From Escherichia phage N15, in sequence record NC_001901.1: 46,375 nucleotides of DNA. One strand, written 5' to 3'. The position numbers and the translations under genes are program-made. A model generated the notes under the pieces. It had not been told where the DNA came from. It ran no database searches and was given only the letters and a program-made list of their open reading frames with translations. Shown here one piece after another: positions 29,886 to 35,747 of the stretch. The stretch's first letter is position 1. Each line of letters starts with the position of its first letter.

Positions 29886-32800
29886 TTATATCGCCACGGC
29901 TTGCCGCTGGCTTAGAAACGCTTTCAGCAGCCTTATTTCGCGTACTGATAGCAGGTCCATAAATTCGGTCATGTACAGCGAGGCGAACGTTCTCGCGATG
30001 CTGGCCACTGGCCACAGGCGTACCGCCTCCATTTCGGTTGCTGGCAACGCGTTCTCCGCCCACGCCTCCGGTACCGCCACCGGGATAGCCTCCAGTGCCT
30101 GGATAATTACTGATTGTGGGGCGTCCGGAACGTGCTCTGTTTTGGATCGAGGGTTACCATGTATATCTATATTTAGATCCAAATCGCGATCCACTTCGAT
30201 GGTGGTTTTTTCCACCTTACGTGCGTGAATTGATAAACCGGCCTCGCGGCGCTTCTCCACGATATTCATGAGGAACTCGACCGAGTCCGGGTCAATGGAA
30301 CGCATCGTGGGGCGTGCATCGCCGTCTCTGGCGCGTCTGGTCTTACTGGATAGCCCCATAGACTCCAGGATGCCTATGCAGAGGTCTGCAGGCGCTTTCT
30401 TCTTGCCTTTCTCTGTGTTGAAGCCGCCGATGCGTAAAACGTTGTTTAGCAGATCGCGCCGTTCCGGCGTGAGCAGGTTATCTCTGGCGCGTTTGAGGGC
30501 GTCCATGTCTGCTTCACCTTCCAGGGTTTTTGGATCGATACCGCAGTCGCGGAAGTACTGCTGCAGCGTCGCCGATTTGAGGGTGTAGAAACCACGCATG
30601 CCTATCTCAACAGCAGGGGTCGATTTCACTCGGTAATCGGTTATGGCCGGGAATTTAGCCTGGAACTCTGCGTCGGCCTGTTCCCGCGTCATGGCCGTAG
30701 TGACGAACTGCTGCCATCTTCCGGCAACGCGATAAGCGTAGGTAAAGTGAATCAACGCTTCTTCACGGTCAAGGCGACGGGCGGTTATCTCATCCAGCTG
30801 CATGGTTTCAAACAGGCGCACTTTTTTCAGGCCGCCGTCGAAATAGAATTTTAACGCCACCTCGTCGACATCCAGCTGCAGCTCCTTTTCGATGTCCCAG
30901 CGGACCAGCTGGGCCTGCTCATCCAGGGACAGGGTGCGTTTTTTTATCAACTCATCGTGTTCGGCCTGGTCAGGAGTATCGACACTCAGGTGGCGCTCCA
31001 TAAGCTGCTCAAAGACCAGTTCACGGGCTTCTTTACGTAAATCCTTACCGATGCTGTTTGCAAGCGCGTCGGTGGCCATAGGCGCGACCTGATAGCCATC
31101 ATCATGCATGATGCAAATCATGTTGCTGGCATAATCATTTCTGGCCGATGCCTCGAGCGCGGCGGCTTTAATTTTGAGCTGCATGAATGAAGAGTTAGCC
31201 ACGCCGAGTGAAATTCGGTCACCGTCAAAGACAACGTCTGTCAGCAGCCCGGAGTGGCCAGCCGTTTCGAGCAAGGCCTGCGCGTAGGCGCGTTTGATTT
31301 TTTCCGGATCGGTTTCACGTTTACCGCGAAGCTTGTCGAAACCGATAATGTATTCCTGAGCTGTACGGTCGCGGCGCAGCATCTGGATGGCGTCGCTGGG
31401 GACCACTTCGCCGCAGAACATGCCGAAATGGCGGTGGAAGTGTTTCTCCTCAATCGATACACCTGAAGATATCGACGGGCTGTAGATGAGGCCGTCATAT
31501 TTTTTCACCATCACTTTAGGCTGGTTGGTGAAATCGTCGACTTCCTTCTCCTGTTTGTTTTTCTGGTTAACGCAGAGAAACTTTTTGTCAGGGAACTGTA
31601 GTCTCAGCTGCATGGTAACGTCTTCGGCGAACGTCGAACTGTCGGTGGCCAGCATGATTCGTTCGCCGCGTTGCACTGCAGCGATAACCTCGGTCATGAT
31701 CCGATTTTTCTCGGTATAAAATACGCGGATAGGCTTGTTGGTTTCGCGGTTGCGAACGTCGACCGGGAGTTCAATCACGTGAATTTGCAGCCAGGCAGGT
31801 AGGCCCAGCTCCTCGCGTCGCTTCATCGCCAGTTCAGCCAGGTCAACAAGCAGATCGTTGGCATCGGCATCCACCATAATGGCATGCTCTTCAGTACGCG
31901 CCAGCGCGTCGATAAGCGTGTTGAATACGCCTACCGGGTTTTCCATCGCACGCCCGGCCAGAATGGCACGCAGGCCCTGTGTTGCTTCATCGAAGCCGAA
32001 GAAGTCATGCTGGCGCATCAGCGGTTGCCAGCAGCCTTTAAGTATGGAGTTGATGCAAATAGTCAGCTTGTTGGCATATGGCGCCATTTCCTGATAGCCG
32101 GGATCCTGATAATGCAGAATGTCGGCTTTCGCGCCTTTCCCTTCGGTCATCATTTCATGCAGGCCGCCTATCAGGGATACGCGGTGCGCGACGGAAACGC
32201 CACGCGTGGACTGCAGCATCAGTGGACGCAGGAGGCCTGTCGATTTACCCGACCCCATCCCGGCGCGGACAATAACGATGCCCTGCAGCTGTGCGGCGTA
32301 TGTCATCACCTCATCGGTCATCCTGGAGGTTTCAAACCGTTTGTAAGTGATGTGTGACGGGCGAAGGTTCGGGTTGGTGATGCGTTCACTGAACGAACGT
32401 GATGTTTGCGCGGCACGGCATTTGCGATTCAACCGGCGCGTAATGTGATCTTTAACGGTACCGTTATAAATTTCTGCGATACCCATATCCCGCAGCGTGC
32501 TGCTGAAAAGGCGCATAAGTTCTTTCGGGCTGTTTGGTACCGGGCATGTCAGCATGCCAATATCAACGGCGCGAAGCAGTTCTTTGGCAAAAGTGCGTCT
32601 GTTCAGACGCGGGAGAGTACGCAGCTTATTCAGCGTGATCGACAACAGGTCGGTTGCACGGCTCAGATGATTTCTCGTTAACTGGCGAGCGACTTCCTTC
32701 AGCCCTCTCAGGCTGTGCAGGTCGTTAAAATCGCTGCATTCCAGCTCAGGGTCATCCTCAAAAGTTGGGTAAACACATTTGACGCCGGAAAACTTCTCCA

Positions 32801-33860
32801 TGATGTCGAATCCGGTGCGGAGGCCTGTGTTGCCTTTTCCTTCAGCTGAGGATTTGCGGTCGTTATCGAGAGCGCAAGTGATTTGCGCAGCCGGGTACAT
32901 GTTCACCAGCTGCTCGACAACGTGAATCATGTTGTTAGCGGAAACCGCAATGACTACCGCGTCAAAGCGTTTTTTCGGGTCGTTTCTGGTCGCCAGCCAG
33001 ATGGATGCCCCGGTGGCGAAACCCTCTGCAGTCGCAATTTTTTGCGCCCCCTGCAGGTCGCCAATAACAAAGCATGCACCGACGAAATCACCGTTAGTGA
33101 TGGCGCTGGTCTGGAACTTGCCACCATTCAGATCGATACGTTGCCAGCCAACAATCCGCCCGTCTTTTCTTCCGTCCAGGTGGGACAGAGGTATCGCCAT
33201 GTAAGTTGTTGGTCCACGGCTCCATTTCGCACTGTCGTGACTGGTCACGCGACGTATATCACAAGCGCCAAATACGTCACGAATTCCCTTTTTTACCGCA
33301 TAAGGCCAGGAGCCATCTTCAGCTGGCGAATGTTCCCAGGCGCGATGGAAAGCCAACCATCCAAGCAGGCGTTCCTGCTCCATCTGATTGTTTTTTAAAT
33401 CATTAACGCGTTGTTGTTCAGCTCGGAGGCGGCGTGCTTCAGCCTGGCGCTCCATGCGTGCACGTTCTTCTTCCGGCTGAGCGACCACGGTCGCACCATT
33501 CCGTTGCTGTTCACGGCGATACTCCGAAAACAGGAATGAAAAGCCACTCCAGGAGCCAGCGTCATGCGCTTTTTCAACGAAGTTAACGAAAGGATAACTG
33601 ATGCCATCCTTGCTCTGCTCAAGGCGTGAATAGATTTCCACACGGCCTTTAAGGCTCTTCTGCAGAGCTTCCGGGGAGGAATTATTGTAGGTGGTATAGC
33701 GCTCTACACCACCGCGCGGATTGAGCTGAATCTTATCAGCACACGCAGGCCAGTTGATACCGGCCATCTTCGCCAGCTCAGTCAGCTCATCACGTGCCGC
33801 GTCAAGCAGTGAAAACGGATCGCTGCCAAAGCGCTCCGCGTAGAATTCTTGTAAGGTCAT
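29886..33860 (-). CDS. repA: Replication protein RepA (primase / Toprim plus helicase multidomain replicase)
   Basis: 1324 aa. Toprim-like TAEGFATGASI...CALDNDRKSSAEGKGNTG. Walker A VRAGMGSGKST. Plasmid-type replicase known as the only N15 gene needed for plasmid replication. Confidence 0.95.
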   Translation of the reverse strand: MTLQEFYAERFGSDPFSLLDAARDELTELAKMAGINWPACADKIQLNPRGGVERYTTYNNSSPEALQKSLKGRVEIYSRLEQSKDGISYPFVNFVEKAHDAGSWSGFSFLFSEYRREQQRNGATVVAQPEEERARMERQAEARRLRAEQQRVNDLKNNQMEQERLLGWLAFHRAWEHSPAEDGSWPYAVKKGIRDVFGACDIRRVTSHDSAKWSRGPTTYMAIPLSHLDGRKDGRIVGWQRIDLNGGKFQTSAITNGDFVGACFVIGDLQGAQKIATAEGFATGASIWLATRNDPKKRFDAVVIAVSANNMIHVVEQLVNMYPAAQITCALDNDRKSSAEGKGNTGLRTGFDIMEKFSGVKCVYPTFEDDPELECSDFNDLHSLRGLKEVARQLTRNHLSRATDLLSITLNKLRTLPRLNRRTFAKELLRAVDIGMLTCPVPNSPKELMRLFSSTLRDMGIAEIYNGTVKDHITRRLNRKCRAAQTSRSFSERITNPNLRPSHITYKRFETSRMTDEVMTYAAQLQGIVIVRAGMGSGKSTGLLRPLMLQSTRGVSVAHRVSLIGGLHEMMTEGKGAKADILHYQDPGYQEMAPYANKLTICINSILKGCWQPLMRQHDFFGFDEATQGLRAILAGRAMENPVGVFNTLIDALARTEEHAIMVDADANDLLVDLAELAMKRREELGLPAWLQIHVIELPVDVRNRETNKPIRVFYTEKNRIMTEVIAAVQRGERIMLATDSSTFAEDVTMQLRLQFPDKKFLCVNQKNKQEKEVDDFTNQPKVMVKKYDGLIYSPSISSGVSIEEKHFHRHFGMFCGEVVPSDAIQMLRRDRTAQEYIIGFDKLRGKRETDPEKIKRAYAQALLETAGHSGLLTDVVFDGDRISLGVANSSFMQLKIKAAALEASARNDYASNMICIMHDDGYQVAPMATDALANSIGKDLRKEARELVFEQLMERHLSVDTPDQAEHDELIKKRTLSLDEQAQLVRWDIEKELQLDVDEVALKFYFDGGLKKVRLFETMQLDEITARRLDREEALIHFTYAYRVAGRWQQFVTTAMTREQADAEFQAKFPAITDYRVKSTPAVEIGMRGFYTLKSATLQQYFRDCGIDPKTLEGEADMDALKRARDNLLTPERRDLLNNVLRIGGFNTEKGKKKAPADLCIGILESMGLSSKTRRARDGDARPTMRSIDPDSVEFLMNIVEKRREAGLSIHARKVEKTTIEVDRDLDLNIDIHGNPRSKTEHVPDAPQSVIIQALEAIPVAVPEAWAENALPATEMEAVRLWPVASIARTFASLYMTEFMDLLSVREIRLLKAFLSQRQAVAI
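30141..30215. other. ori: Candidate replication origin core inside the 3' part of repA
   Basis: TTGGATC / GATCCAA inverted repeat (30141..30147, 30175..30181) flanks the AT-rich catgtatatctatattta. Several GATC sites. GGTGG-tttttt-CCACC hairpin. The N15 ori is reported to lie within the repA 3' region. Confidence 0.3.
33479..33496. promoter_or_regulatory. Centromere-like palindrome (SopB site) inside repA
   Basis: GAGCGACC-AC-GGTCGCAC, one arm mismatch relative to the other three sites. Architecture resembles F sopC TGGGACC-AC-GGTCCCA. Confidence 0.7.
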
Positions 33861-33932
33861 TTTTTAGCCTTTCCATGCGAATTAGCATTTTTTCGGGTTG
33901 AAAAAATCCGCAGGAGCAGCCACAATAAACGC

Positions 33933-34013
33933 ACTATCTTTCTGAAGGACGTATCTGCGTTATCGTGGCTACTTCCTGAAAAAGGCCCGAGTTTGCCGAC
34001 TCGGGTTTTTTTT
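33933..34013 (+). ncRNA. Candidate antisense RNA to the repA leader
   Basis: + strand promoter TTGAAA-17-CACAAT (33898..33926). Hairpin AACGCA...TGCGTT. Terminator CCCGAGT-ttgccg-ACTCGGG plus T8 (33986..34013). Confidence 0.45.
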
Positions 34014-34078
34014 CGTCTTTTTTCGGCTGCTACGGTCTGGTTCAACCCCGACAAAGTATAGATCGGATTAAACCAGAA

Positions 34079-34094
34079 TTATAGTCAGCAATAA
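34079..34094. promoter_or_regulatory. CB-type operator overlapping the -10 (TATAAT, minus strand, 34078..34083) of the putative repA promoter
   Basis: TTATAGTCAGCAATAA matches the 16-bp TTAT....ATAA operators of the cB-cro region (12/16 to TTATAGCTGGCTATAA). Confidence 0.6.
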
Positions 34095-34108
34095 ACCCTG
34101 TTATTGTA

Positions 34109-34717
34109 TCATCTACCCTCAACCATGAACGATTTGATCGTACCGACTACTTGGTGCACAAATTGAAGATCACTTTTATCATGGATAACCCGTTGAGAGT
34201 TAGCACTATCAAGGTAGTAATGCTGCTCGTCATAACGGGCTAATCGTTGAATTGTGATCTCGCCGTTATTATCACAAACCAGTACATCCTCACCCGGTAC
34301 AAGCGTAAGTGAAGAATCGACCAGGATAACGTCTCCCGGCTGGTAGTTTCGCTGAATCTGGTTCCCGACCGTCAGTGCGTAAACGGTGTTCCGTTGACTC
34401 ACGAACGGCAGGAATCGCTCTGTGTTGGCAGGTTCTCCAGGCTGCCAGTCTCTATCCGGTCCGGTCTCTGTCGTACCAATAACAGGAACGCGGTCTGGAT
34501 CAGATTCAGTGCCATACAGTATCCATTGCACGGGCTTACGCAGGCATTTTGCCAGCGATAGCCCGATCTCCAGCGACGGCATCACGTCGCCACGTTCTAA
34601 GTTTTGGACGCCCGGAAGAGAGATTCCTACAGCTTCTGCCACTTGCTTCAGCGTCAGTTTCAGCTCTAAACGGCGTGCTTTCAGTCGTTCGCCTCGTGTT
34701 TTCATACCCTTAATCAT
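34109..34717 (-). CDS. cB: Prophage repressor CB (HTH_XRE N-domain plus degenerate S24/LexA-like C-domain)
   Basis: KARRLELKLTLKQVAEAVGISLPGVQNLERG HTH. C-domain YALTVGNQIQRNYQPGDVILVD is CI/LexA-like. Divergent from cro. Confidence 0.9.
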   Translation of the reverse strand: MIKGMKTRGERLKARRLELKLTLKQVAEAVGISLPGVQNLERGDVMPSLEIGLSLAKCLRKPVQWILYGTESDPDRVPVIGTTETGPDRDWQPGEPANTERFLPFVSQRNTVYALTVGNQIQRNYQPGDVILVDSSLTLVPGEDVLVCDNNGEITIQRLARYDEQHYYLDSANSQRVIHDKSDLQFVHQVVGTIKSFMVEGR

Positions 34718-34728
34718 AAATGATCTCT

Positions 34729-34744
34729 TTATAGCTGGCTATAA
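34729..34744. promoter_or_regulatory. Operator 1 in the cB-cro intergenic region
   Basis: TTATAGC-TG-GCTATAA, a 16-bp palindrome. Confidence 0.65.
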
Positions 34745-34754
34745 TTTTTATAAA

Positions 34755-34770
34755 TTATACCTAGCTTTAA
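34755..34770. promoter_or_regulatory. Operator 2 in the cB-cro intergenic region
   Basis: TTATACCTAGCTTTAA, 12/16 match to operator 1. Confidence 0.55.
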
Positions 34771-34777
34771 TTTTCAC

Positions 34778-34793
34778 TTATTGATTATAATAA
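34778..34793. promoter_or_regulatory. Operator 3, overlapping a TATAAT hexamer (34783..34788) just upstream of cro
   Basis: TTATTGATTATAATAA with the same TTAT....ATAA ends. The TATAAT sits only 10 nt before the cro ATG. Confidence 0.55.
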
Positions 34794-34798
34794 TCCCC

Positions 34799-35014
34799 AT
34801 GAAACCCGAAGAACTTGTGCGCCATTTCGGCGATGTGGAAAAAGCAGCGGTTGGCGTGGGCGTGACACCCGGCGCAGTCTATCAATGGCTGCAAGCTGGG
34901 GAGATTCCACCTCTACGACAAAGCGATATAGAGGTCCGTACCGCGTACAAATTAAAGAGTGATTTCACCTCTCAGCGCATGGGTAAGGAAGGGCATAACA
35001 GTGGAACTAAATAG
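34799..35014 (+). CDS. cro: Cro-like repressor (YdaS/Cro HTH family)
   Basis: MKPEELVRHFGDVEKAAVGVGVTPGAVYQWLQAGEIPPLR, 71 aa, divergent from cB. Confidence 0.85.
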   Translation: MKPEELVRHFGDVEKAAVGVGVTPGAVYQWLQAGEIPPLRQSDIEVRTAYKLKSDFTSQRMGKEGHNSGTK

Positions 35015-35747
35015 CATTCGGGCCTGTGTATCTACGGCTCTGTCAGATATTCATTATCTCCAGCGCGGCATCCTTGAGGTCCAGCTGGAGCAGCTGCGTC
35101 TCGCAAGCTCTGACCGTTTCACTGACAAACCAACCAGAACGATCTGCATCGGCGATACGGAATCTTATGAAATCTCTGTGCCTGCCGAACCCGTTCGTTA
35201 TCACGTTGGTAAATCCTTCAAACGGTCTTCAATGCTGCTGACTGAATTAGATTTCATGACCGCCAGCTGGCGACGTGCCATTGAGCAGTTAAACAGTGAA
35301 GAAACTGCATGGTTGCATTATTGCTATGGATGCAAACCAAATTATAAGAATGATGTAACTGTTTGCCAGTGGCTGTGGATGGATTTTTTAATTGCGCATT
35401 CCAGAGCGGGCTTTAAAAAAATGAAAGCCCCAACAAAAAAAATTATGCAGAGATTAACTTACTACGGAATACAGCAAGTTAAATGTGAAATATTTCACGA
35501 ACTGCATGATTCGGATATTGATGGAATGGAGCGAGACGAACACATAAGTTCTTTAGTGGGTGTATCCGTCGAAAGCTGGCGTAAGGATTATAAAAAACGC
35601 TGGTTATTACTGAAATCACGATGCATGCATCTTAACGATACCGCGTTATTAAATGCGGCGGAGAAGCGCTGTGAAATCATCGAAAGCCATCGTGCAAGAA
35701 GTGCCGACCTGCCTGTGTCAGCAGGTTATGCTCAGGAAACCAGATAA
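35001..35747 (+). CDS. Q: Late-gene antiterminator Q-like protein
   Basis: Follows cro. GTG at 35001 after AAGGAAG (an in-frame ATG at 34959 is an alternative). N15 gene order cB-cro-Q is established. Family assignment is from position and memory. Confidence 0.65.
   Translation: MELNSIRACVSTALSDIHYLQRGILEVQLEQLRLASSDRFTDKPTRTICIGDTESYEISVPAEPVRYHVGKSFKRSSMLLTELDFMTASWRRAIEQLNSEETAWLHYCYGCKPNYKNDVTVCQWLWMDFLIAHSRAGFKKMKAPTKKIMQRLTYYGIQQVKCEIFHELHDSDIDGMERDEHISSLVGVSVESWRKDYKKRWLLLKSRCMHLNDTALLNAAEKRCEIIESHRARSADLPVSAGYAQETR

Follow-up and report, generated by a model that had tools for sequence, protein, structure and literature searches.

Comparative support for the predicted antisense RNA in the repA leader of phage N15

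The cB-repA intergenic region of N15

The window analysed here is a stretch of 46,375 bp that corresponds to the whole genome of phage N15 and is 99.6-100% identical to the N15 records (blastn). All of the control elements discussed below lie in the 248-bp gap between the cB and repA genes, which is described in the immB record of N15 (GenBank U45242.1; position 1 of the record is window position 33843). The features of this record match, base for base, the coordinates of an original prediction made on the same DNA, except in the choice of the repA -10 hexamer. The control region was thus already known: its elements have been annotated since 1996, and their recovery here is a rediscovery and not a new object. 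The two layers of control over repA proposed in the original prediction, one exerted by a repressor on the promoter and the other by a candidate antisense RNA within the leader, are likewise the depositors' own annotation, in which the antisense RNA is marked 'putative'. The new part is comparative, in that the layout of the region is strongly conserved among related phage-plasmids, which supports the old antisense prediction. The features are as follows.

34717..34109: cB ORF
34090..34095, minus strand: -35 hexamer of PL (TTTATT), 17 bp upstream of the -10; the two are annotated in U45242.1 as 'PL; putative promoter of repA'
34079..34094: CB operator OL2, TTATAGTCAGCAATAA, overlapping the PL -35; annotated in U45242.1, where it is mislabelled 'OR2'
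34078..34083, minus strand: TATAAT, consisting of the CTATAA half-site of OL2 and one T
34067..34072, minus strand: -10 hexamer of PL (TTTAAT)
34056..34071: CB operator OL1, GTATAGATCGGATTAA, overlapping the PL -10; annotated in U45242.1
33986..34005, both strands: hairpin CCCGAGT-ttgccg-ACTCGGG with a 6-nt loop, called by the terminator scan and annotated in the U45242.1 and phiKO2 records
34006..34013, plus strand: T8 run ending the predicted antisense RNA
33986..34013, plus strand: 'putative terminator of RNA antisense to repA transcript' of U45242.1
33975..34005, minus strand: 'putative terminator of repA leader transcript' of U45242.1
33979..33985, minus strand: sense tail CCUUUUU, a weak U-tract 2 nt off the stem (leaky leader or cB terminator)
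33921..33926, plus strand: -10 hexamer of Pinc (CACAAT), 17 bp after the -35; promoter scan and U45242.1
33898..33903, plus strand: -35 hexamer of Pinc (TTGAAA); promoter scan and U45242.1, where the two are annotated as 'Pinc; promoter of putative antisense RNA'
33868..33874, minus strand: repA Shine-Dalgarno sequence GGAAAGG, annotated as RBS in U45242.1 and kept in the N15-group alignment and in the L110 contig (see below)
33860..33858, minus strand: repA ATG
33860..29886, minus strand: repA, an ORF of 1,324 codons

The repA leader had been given a length of 250 nt, a figure that describes the cB-repA gap; the leader that would start at the annotated PL is about 200 nt long. A 16-bp CB-type operator had been placed at 34079..34094, overlapping a minus-strand TATAAT, and both are present at these positions. 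The TATAAT had been taken for the repA -10 hexamer, a choice that comparison with relatives does not bear out: among 41 unique leaders of the N15 group, the hexamer at 34083..34078 reads TATAAT in 10, TATAAA in 22 and TGTAAA in 9, and it has no -35 match 16-18 bp upstream, whereas the annotated TTTAAT is invariant (41/41) and the TTTATT upstream of it is kept in 39 leaders. This difference in conservation makes the annotated PL the likelier repA promoter, and the TATAAT is probably a half-site of OL2 rather than a -10 element. PL matches the consensus at 8 of 12 positions, which is under the threshold of our promoter scan, hence its absence from the scan output.

The notion of a repressor-covered promoter stood as far as the operator lying over the promoter is concerned, but it passed over the second operator, OL1 (34056-34071). 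Extraction and comparison of the five CB operators gave a common form of 16 bp, TTATAG-N4-CTATAA (T-A-N10-T-A), related to OR1-OR3. OL2 (TTATAGTCAGCAATAA) agrees with the four others, for example OR3 (TTATAGCTGGCTATAA), and in a pattern search of the window OR3 was its sole other near match, with two mismatches. The arrangement is reminiscent of OL/OR control of the lambda type, in that a prophage repressor acts on a set of related 16-bp operators at two places, one set of which lies over an early leftward promoter; unlike in lambda, the gene controlled by OL in N15 encodes the plasmid replication initiator. Binding of CB to two OL operators that overlap the predicted repA promoter, and a lowering of copy number, have been reported (PMC4488713; PMC4997575), in agreement with the control of repA by CB mentioned in the original prediction, and the N15 immunity repressor thus also sets copy number (PMC4997575). 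An antisense RNA goes unmentioned in these papers on CB-OL binding (PMC4488713; PMC4997575).

Conservation of the candidate antisense promoter and the two-way terminator

Relatives were gathered by blastn, by searching IMG/VR and genomes for the exact terminator sequence and, in a separate search, with RepA peptide patterns. Over the 41 unique leaders of the N15 group, conservation was counted with the third codon positions of repA and cB (0.62-0.63 mean pairwise identity) as a neutral yardstick. One record, Kpn_R1, was left out, being an unverified partial record with a RepA 60% identical to that of N15 and no recognisable leader upstream of the match.

The plus-strand TTGAAA-17-CACAAT of the candidate promoter, Pinc, lies at 33898..33926, as had been predicted. 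Its 9/12 match to the consensus is by itself no better than chance, since the scan yielded three promoter-like sites in 1.7 kb versus 1.9 expected from shuffled sequences. Both hexamers are nonetheless invariant in all 41 N15-like leaders, as are 16 of the 17 spacer positions, and a 50-bp block that includes the spacer is invariant as a whole in the group, a degree of sequence conservation well above neutral. The invariance of the terminator in this set is partly built in, as the set was gathered with that sequence pattern; among the leaders found via the RepA protein, 31 of 31 unique ones carry the 24-nt terminator and the 29-nt Pinc block, both without a single change. With the spacer as invariant as the hexamers, part of the constraint must be unrelated to promoter function and could reflect, for example, the 3' arm of a hairpin in the sense RNA (hairpin I, see below). 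Judged by eye, the invariant block contains no match to a DnaA box.

More distant leaders were compared as well. The IMG/VR contig L110 encodes a RepA whose N-terminus is 50% identical to that of N15, and its leader can still be aligned; Pinc reads TTGAAA-17-CAGAAT there, with four substitutions in the spacer, and the predicted antisense RNA is again 81 nt long. The PY54 group comprises 11 leaders (PY54, P840, the Salmonella plasmid pAR-0403, a Rouxiella plasmid and seven IMG/VR contigs), with RepA N-termini about 39-50% identical to N15 in the members compared directly and no detectable nucleotide similarity to the N15 leader. In each of the 11 the antisense strand carries TTGCRC-18-TAMAAT, in which the hexamers are conserved and the spacer varies in sequence but is fixed in length. 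The -10 lies 52-54 nt from the ATG, compared with 60 nt in N15, and the predicted antisense RNAs are 70-75 nt long (109 nt in one case) and end at a strong hairpin. These promoters match the consensus at 8 of 12 positions, under the scan threshold, and the argument for them rests on their pattern of conservation. The conservation of Pinc in the 41 N15-like leaders, in L110 and, at the level of layout, in the non-alignable PY54 group supports the existence of a real antisense promoter. Further away, the leaders of VP882 and phiHAP-1 both contain a GC-rich hairpin; phiHAP-1 has a convincing antisense promoter (TTGAAC-17-TATACT) but none was found in the VP882 leader, and we thus limit the claim of a shared architecture to the enterobacterial groups.

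The hairpin at 33986..34005, with T8 on the plus strand and CCUUUUU on the sense strand, is as described in the original prediction and is annotated as a 'putative bidirectional' terminator in the phiKO2 record. It has the make-up of such an element, a GC-rich hairpin with an A-run on one side and a T-run on the other, and the scan called it on both strands. Its two directions differ in strength. On the plus strand up to 16 pairs can form, counting flanking A/U and G.U pairs, with a core stem of about -14 kcal/mol followed by T8, whereas the sense-strand terminator, which lies about 55-80 nt into the repA leader, has 7 pairs, then CC, then U5; the sense tail varies among relatives (CCTTTTTT, CCTTTTT, TCCTTTT). 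In L110 the stem is CCUGGU/ACCGGG on the antisense strand, including a G.U pair whose sense-strand counterpart is a C.A mismatch, with energies of -13.1 (antisense) versus -8.6 kcal/mol (sense) and a U7 on the antisense side versus only a U4 on the sense side. In the PY54 group, where compensatory substitutions in the stem turn GGT/ACC into GGA/TCC, the antisense T-run is conserved in 11/11 leaders and the sense U-run is missing in about 7 of the 11, being present in Salmonella pAR-0403 and in Rouxiella. By these sequence comparisons, the terminator is weak on its sense side, where it is evolutionarily dispensable, and its antisense side is kept in every group.

The predicted countertranscript and hairpin I of the sense leader

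An RNA initiated at Pinc would be complementary to the part of the repA leader that begins with the terminator hairpin, and a large hairpin, which we call hairpin I, is predicted directly after the terminator in the sense RNA.

33933..34013, plus strand: predicted countertranscript (ctRNA) of about 81 nt, with its start at A33933 placed from the Pinc -10 and its end at the T8 run
33911..33978, minus strand: sense hairpin I, 68 nt, directly after the terminator
33978..33955, minus strand: 5' arm of hairpin I
33954..33934, minus strand: loop of hairpin I
33933..33911, minus strand: 3' arm of hairpin I
33919..33908, minus strand: small sense hairpin CUGC-UCCU-GCGG (RNAalifold consensus, -4.7 kcal/mol), followed by A and by U6 at 33906..33901

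The antisense RNA of about 80 nt put forward in the original prediction agrees well with the 81 nt that we predict, by sequence and conservation, from A33933 downstream of a conserved candidate promoter. The ctRNA folds at -31.9 kcal/mol, compared with -17.1 +/- 2.9 for shuffled sequences (z = -5.0; 0/200 shuffles as good). Its first 13 nt are unpaired in the minimum-energy fold, and the loop of hairpin I (33954..33934) has its complement in the first ~22 nt, such that the 5' tail would pair with the loop and the middle with the 5' arm, while the 3' end is the terminator hairpin followed by U8. In these predicted folds the ctRNA has a feature of antisense copy control, a structured RNA with an unpaired 5' tail complementary to an exposed target loop. 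The body of the RNA occurs in 24 distinct variants among relatives and is hypervariable: over the 41 leaders, positions 33935-33978 have 0.65 mean pairwise identity, 6 of 44 invariant columns and indels. Three leaders (L022, L026 and L034) are near-identical to N15 except in this stretch, where they differ sharply. Such a distribution of sequence variation suggests that the ctRNA body sets copy-control specificity of the incompatibility type, and a functional countertranscript is likely on these comparative grounds.

Hairpin I itself is divided between the two regimes of conservation. Its 3' arm is the invariant block, on the strand opposite the Pinc -10 and spacer, and its loop and 5' arm make up the variable part. 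When folded separately, 25 of 25 sequence variants form the hairpin, at -27 to -40 kcal/mol, and it is kept in L110 despite changes on both arms; the fold of the whole leader has a z of -4.2. RNAalifold on a MAFFT alignment of the 25 leader variants missed hairpin I, indels having shifted the variable 5' arm out of register, and its consensus contains the small hairpin CUGC-UCCU-GCGG instead. Hairpin I and this small hairpin with its U6 are mutually exclusive: the pair probability of the latter is 0.93-0.96 with the 5' arm of hairpin I unavailable, and it is absent once hairpin I forms. Its stem of 4 bp was not called by the terminator scan.

We considered two simple ways in which the leader might act on repA expression, and both were rejected. 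A translational switch by sequestration of the RBS was addressed by constrained refolding: blocking the antisense target left the paired probability of the RBS window unchanged in N15 (0.51 vs 0.51) and gave no consistent shift in RBS access in the 11 PY54-group leaders. As for a leader peptide, N15 has a 65-codon ORF at 34054..33857, which ends in an ATGA over the repA start, and a 74-aa ORF is annotated at the same position in KpLi5; stop-free stretches occur in all 41 leaders, but they are in frames 0, 1 and 2 and have differing ends. With no conserved leader peptide and no predicted change in RBS access, no known downstream mechanism can be assigned to the N15 RNA.

An Rfam scan of 33000-35500 at a permissive E-value gave no family at its gathering threshold; the best matches, Thr_leader (25.2 bits versus a threshold of 55) and NsiR1 (24 versus 39), are both driven by the terminator hairpin. 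A full-text literature search, with the likeliest experimental papers outside its reach, returned no report of the ctRNA being detected, nor of its blocking Rep synthesis in trans, conferring incompatibility or having mutants with a raised copy number.

From antisense pairing to RepA levels

The reading that we favour, and consider reasonably probable, is that the annotated repA region combines a CB-covered PL, a two-way terminator that is leaky in the sense direction and a ctRNA from Pinc that pairs with hairpin I and lowers RepA. Transcription of repA runs leftwards from PL (TTTATT-17-TTTAAT), over which the CB operators OL1 and OL2 lie. In the sense direction the hairpin would act as a leaky terminator, independently of the antisense RNA, trimming the transcripts of both PL and cB; in the antisense direction it would act as a strong terminator, ending the ~81-nt RNA that starts from Pinc near A33933 at the T8 run. 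The target of the ctRNA would be those repA transcripts that have read through the terminator: pairing would begin at the loop of hairpin I, spread into its 5' arm and cut RepA output after the first terminator has been passed. Possible routes from pairing to less RepA are cleavage or decay of the duplex, or the formation of other structures by the freed 3' arm.

Elements of this arrangement are found in two kinds of known system. As in pT181, pIP501 and pAMbeta1, the predicted N15 RNA is a small antisense RNA with its start inside the rep leader and an intrinsic terminator at its end, and the leader has, besides hairpins resembling terminators, a large one that could serve as a switch. In those plasmids, which come from Gram-positive hosts unlike that of N15, the attenuator follows the target; in N15, the target itself begins with the strong hairpin and is followed only by a weak 4-bp hairpin with a U6. 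The resemblance to R1 CopA/CopT, ColE2 RNAI and pMV158 RNAII lies in a short RNA with a terminator stem-loop whose target is displayed in the loop of a leader hairpin, and in a pairing region that varies between relatives, as expected of an incompatibility determinant; the difference is that, in N15, about 60 nt of leader separate the end of the RNA from the RBS downstream. The antisense promoter of N15 is not covered by the CB operators.

The main rival to our preferred reading, which we regard as unlikely all the same, is attenuation at a second site downstream. In the absence of the ctRNA, hairpin I would keep the CUGC of its 3' arm paired. Pairing of the ctRNA with the loop and 5' arm of hairpin I would free the 3' arm, which would then form CUGC-UCCU-GCGG with its A-U6 and stop transcription about 40 nt before the repA ATG, in the right order of target, then terminator. 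Once the 5' arm is withdrawn, the local fold of lowest energy is this small hairpin, it appears in the RNAalifold consensus, and L110 keeps all four of its pairs through two one-sided changes, followed by U5. As a terminator, however, the N15 stem (4 bp, -4.7 kcal/mol) is weaker than typical intrinsic terminators, the terminator scan is silent on it and its U6 can also pair with an A6 run further downstream. In PY54 a better sense terminator (8 bp, -8.1 kcal/mol, then C-U8) separates the antisense target from the Shine-Dalgarno sequence, but it is distinct from the 3' arm of hairpin I and has no overlap with it, such that the logic of the switch cannot be transferred, and Rouxiella lacks a U-run at that place.

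Attenuation of the pT181 kind is known mainly from Gram-positive plasmids. In a bolder version, to which we would attach little confidence, antisense promoter, antisense-facing terminator and hairpin I would form a single copy-control and incompatibility module common to all enterobacterial telomere phage-plasmids with an N15-type RepA, working in N15 by pT181-like attenuation at the weak downstream hairpin and U6, with the convergent PL-Pinc pair tying copy number to the lysogeny switch. Such a module would span the N15/phiKO2 group, L110 and the PY54/Salmonella/Rouxiella group.

It is also doubtful, in our view, that there is no working antisense RNA at all and that the block owes its conservation to the sense leader (the 3' arm of hairpin I, an A/U hairpin, translation initiation) or to a role as a protein-binding site; just as doubtful is the associated role for the hairpin, that of a plain cB/PL terminator that also shields cB from stray antisense transcription. 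The invariance of the Pinc spacer, unneeded for a promoter, would be explained in this way, and the consensus match at chance level, the fact that no transcript evidence was found and the small strand asymmetry of hairpin I (-33.0 kcal/mol for the sense strand versus -31.5 for the plus strand) are all compatible with it. The more distant leaders point in the other direction: in the PY54 group the spacer varies in sequence but neither its length of 18 bp nor the hexamers do, a pattern characteristic of a promoter, and in L110 hexamers and spacing persist despite four changed spacer bases. In every group, moreover, it is on the side of the antisense T-run that the hairpin is conserved, and a terminator facing a promoterless region would have nothing to stop.

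The original prediction had the antisense RNA pair with the nascent leader and cause termination at the two-way hairpin itself (33986-34005), a countertranscript-driven attenuation of the pT181/pIP501 type. The hairpin is indeed terminator-like on the sense strand, where it is annotated as the terminator of the leader transcript, and the antisense RNA is fully complementary to that part of the leader, but the geometry is wrong. In attenuation of this type the polymerase makes the target first and the terminator afterwards. In N15 the complementary part of the sense RNA (34013..33933) opens with the hairpin, and its other ~50 nt lie downstream of the U-tract, so that termination would be decided before most of the target had been made. 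The folds contain no upstream structure competing with the hairpin, and the sense side, with its CC before U5, is the weaker one and is lost in L110 and in about 7 of the 11 PY54-group leaders. We therefore hold this mechanism to be very improbable. Lower still in our estimation is transcriptional interference, by which polymerases from the convergent PL and Pinc (starts ~127 bp apart, a layout that follows from the coordinates and recurs in the PY54 group) would collide or occlude each other largely without RNA pairing, Pinc dominating while CB holds PL down and PL overrunning Pinc, with a jump in replication, once CB is inactivated, since the strong terminator between the promoters would stop Pinc transcripts before PL and limit collisions to the sense direction, and since the hypervariable RNA body and the always-kept hairpin I point to base-pairing specificity.

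The comparative data thus back the old antisense prediction, favour TTTAAT over TATAAT as the repA -10 and argue, by geometry, against attenuation at the two-way hairpin. If the prediction is true, a working countertranscript would add a second control of copy number in N15 and would probably determine incompatibility between telomere phages that share a cell. Phage-plasmids of the N15 type are frequent in Klebsiella and E. coli, and 227 plasmid records contain a related RepA. The CopA/RepA system treated in a 2026 preprint on phage-plasmid copy-number mutants is unrelated. Linear cloning vectors have also been built on N15, and their copy number is induced via the CB/antirepressor circuit (PMC2847241).

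Additional elements of the N15 repA leader

Upstream of the terminator, the repA leader contains a short segment similar to the 5' arm of hairpin I, the 68-nt hairpin of the sense RNA:
34024-34036, minus strand, GUAGCAGCCG
The + strand of this segment includes GGCTGCT, which is invariant in 10 relatives. When the 5' arm of hairpin I is blocked, its 3' arm can pair with the GUAGCAGCCG segment, which may be a third partner of a structural switch. At the position equivalent to 33927-33939, many relatives (e.g. L027 and L022, two of the leaders collected for comparison) have CACAATAAACGCACAATC. CACAAT therefore occurs again in these relatives, 11 bp past the -10 of Pinc, the predicted antisense-RNA promoter, at a place where N15 has CACTAT. 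The repeated hexamer could serve those phages as an alternative -10 or start site.

The sense-strand hairpin of the PY54 group

The PY54 group of leaders, which cannot be aligned with that of N15, has a sense-strand hairpin of its own:
PY54 (L012) 1452-1503, sense strand, hairpin CUCGUGCGC/GUGCAGAG, -8.1 kcal/mol
It is followed by C-U8 and lies immediately before the Shine-Dalgarno sequence. Its pairing is maintained in the group through swapped G.U positions, which are valid on the sense strand only. The Shine-Dalgarno sequence itself, GCGGAAA, has a complement, GUUUCCGC, upstream.

Reading frames and the repA start codon

A stretch without stop codons, 55-92 codons long, crosses the terminator and hairpin I in all 41 related leaders:
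N15 33857-34054, minus strand, stop-free run
Klebsiella KpLi5 (L004) 1222-1446, stop-free run
The N15 run terminates in an ATGA that overlaps the start of repA. The ends and the frame of the run vary among the 41 relatives, and it is probably non-coding; its persistence in every one of them is nonetheless odd. In the Klebsiella records KpLi5 and 48ST307 (L006), one A fewer separates an upstream AUG (in CAUGGAAAGG) from the repA AUG (region equivalent to 33861-33877), so that the upstream AUG falls in the repA frame, and the annotated repA start is 15 nt earlier. In N15 the corresponding AUG lies outside the repA frame, and this favours the downstream AUG as the true start of repA.

A further reading frame lies antisense to the repressor gene cB:
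34422-34784, + strand, 120-codon ORF
In GenBank it is entered as a CDS whose function is unknown, and a separate ribosome-binding site is marked for it.

Annotation and anomalous records

In the immB record U45242.1, the operator at 237-252 (window 34079-34094) is named OR2, yet it is in the OL region, adjoining OL1, and is evidently OL2. The name OR2 is given twice in this record, and the true OR2 is at 34755-34770.

The 24-nt N15 terminator CCCGAGTTTGCCGACTCGGGTTTT is matched exactly in a 491-bp, high-coverage Segatella copri contig (NZ_JAHOEA010000187.1) whose surrounding sequence is unrelated to N15; the match may reflect chance or a common terminator sequence. On several IMG/VR viral contigs, the leader and repA are present as two inverted copies, for example:
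IMGVR_UViG_2791355284_000001 (92 kb), L065/L066
IMGVR_UViG_2703718687_000004, L076/L081
Head-to-head dimer assemblies of linear hairpin-ended plasmids would fit this arrangement, and so would replication intermediates. Lastly, Klebsiella phage Kpn74 (OQ790078.1, L010) diverges abruptly from the other records directly past OL2; the annotation places its cB on the opposite strand and RepA matches at three places, and the record looks rearranged or misassembled.
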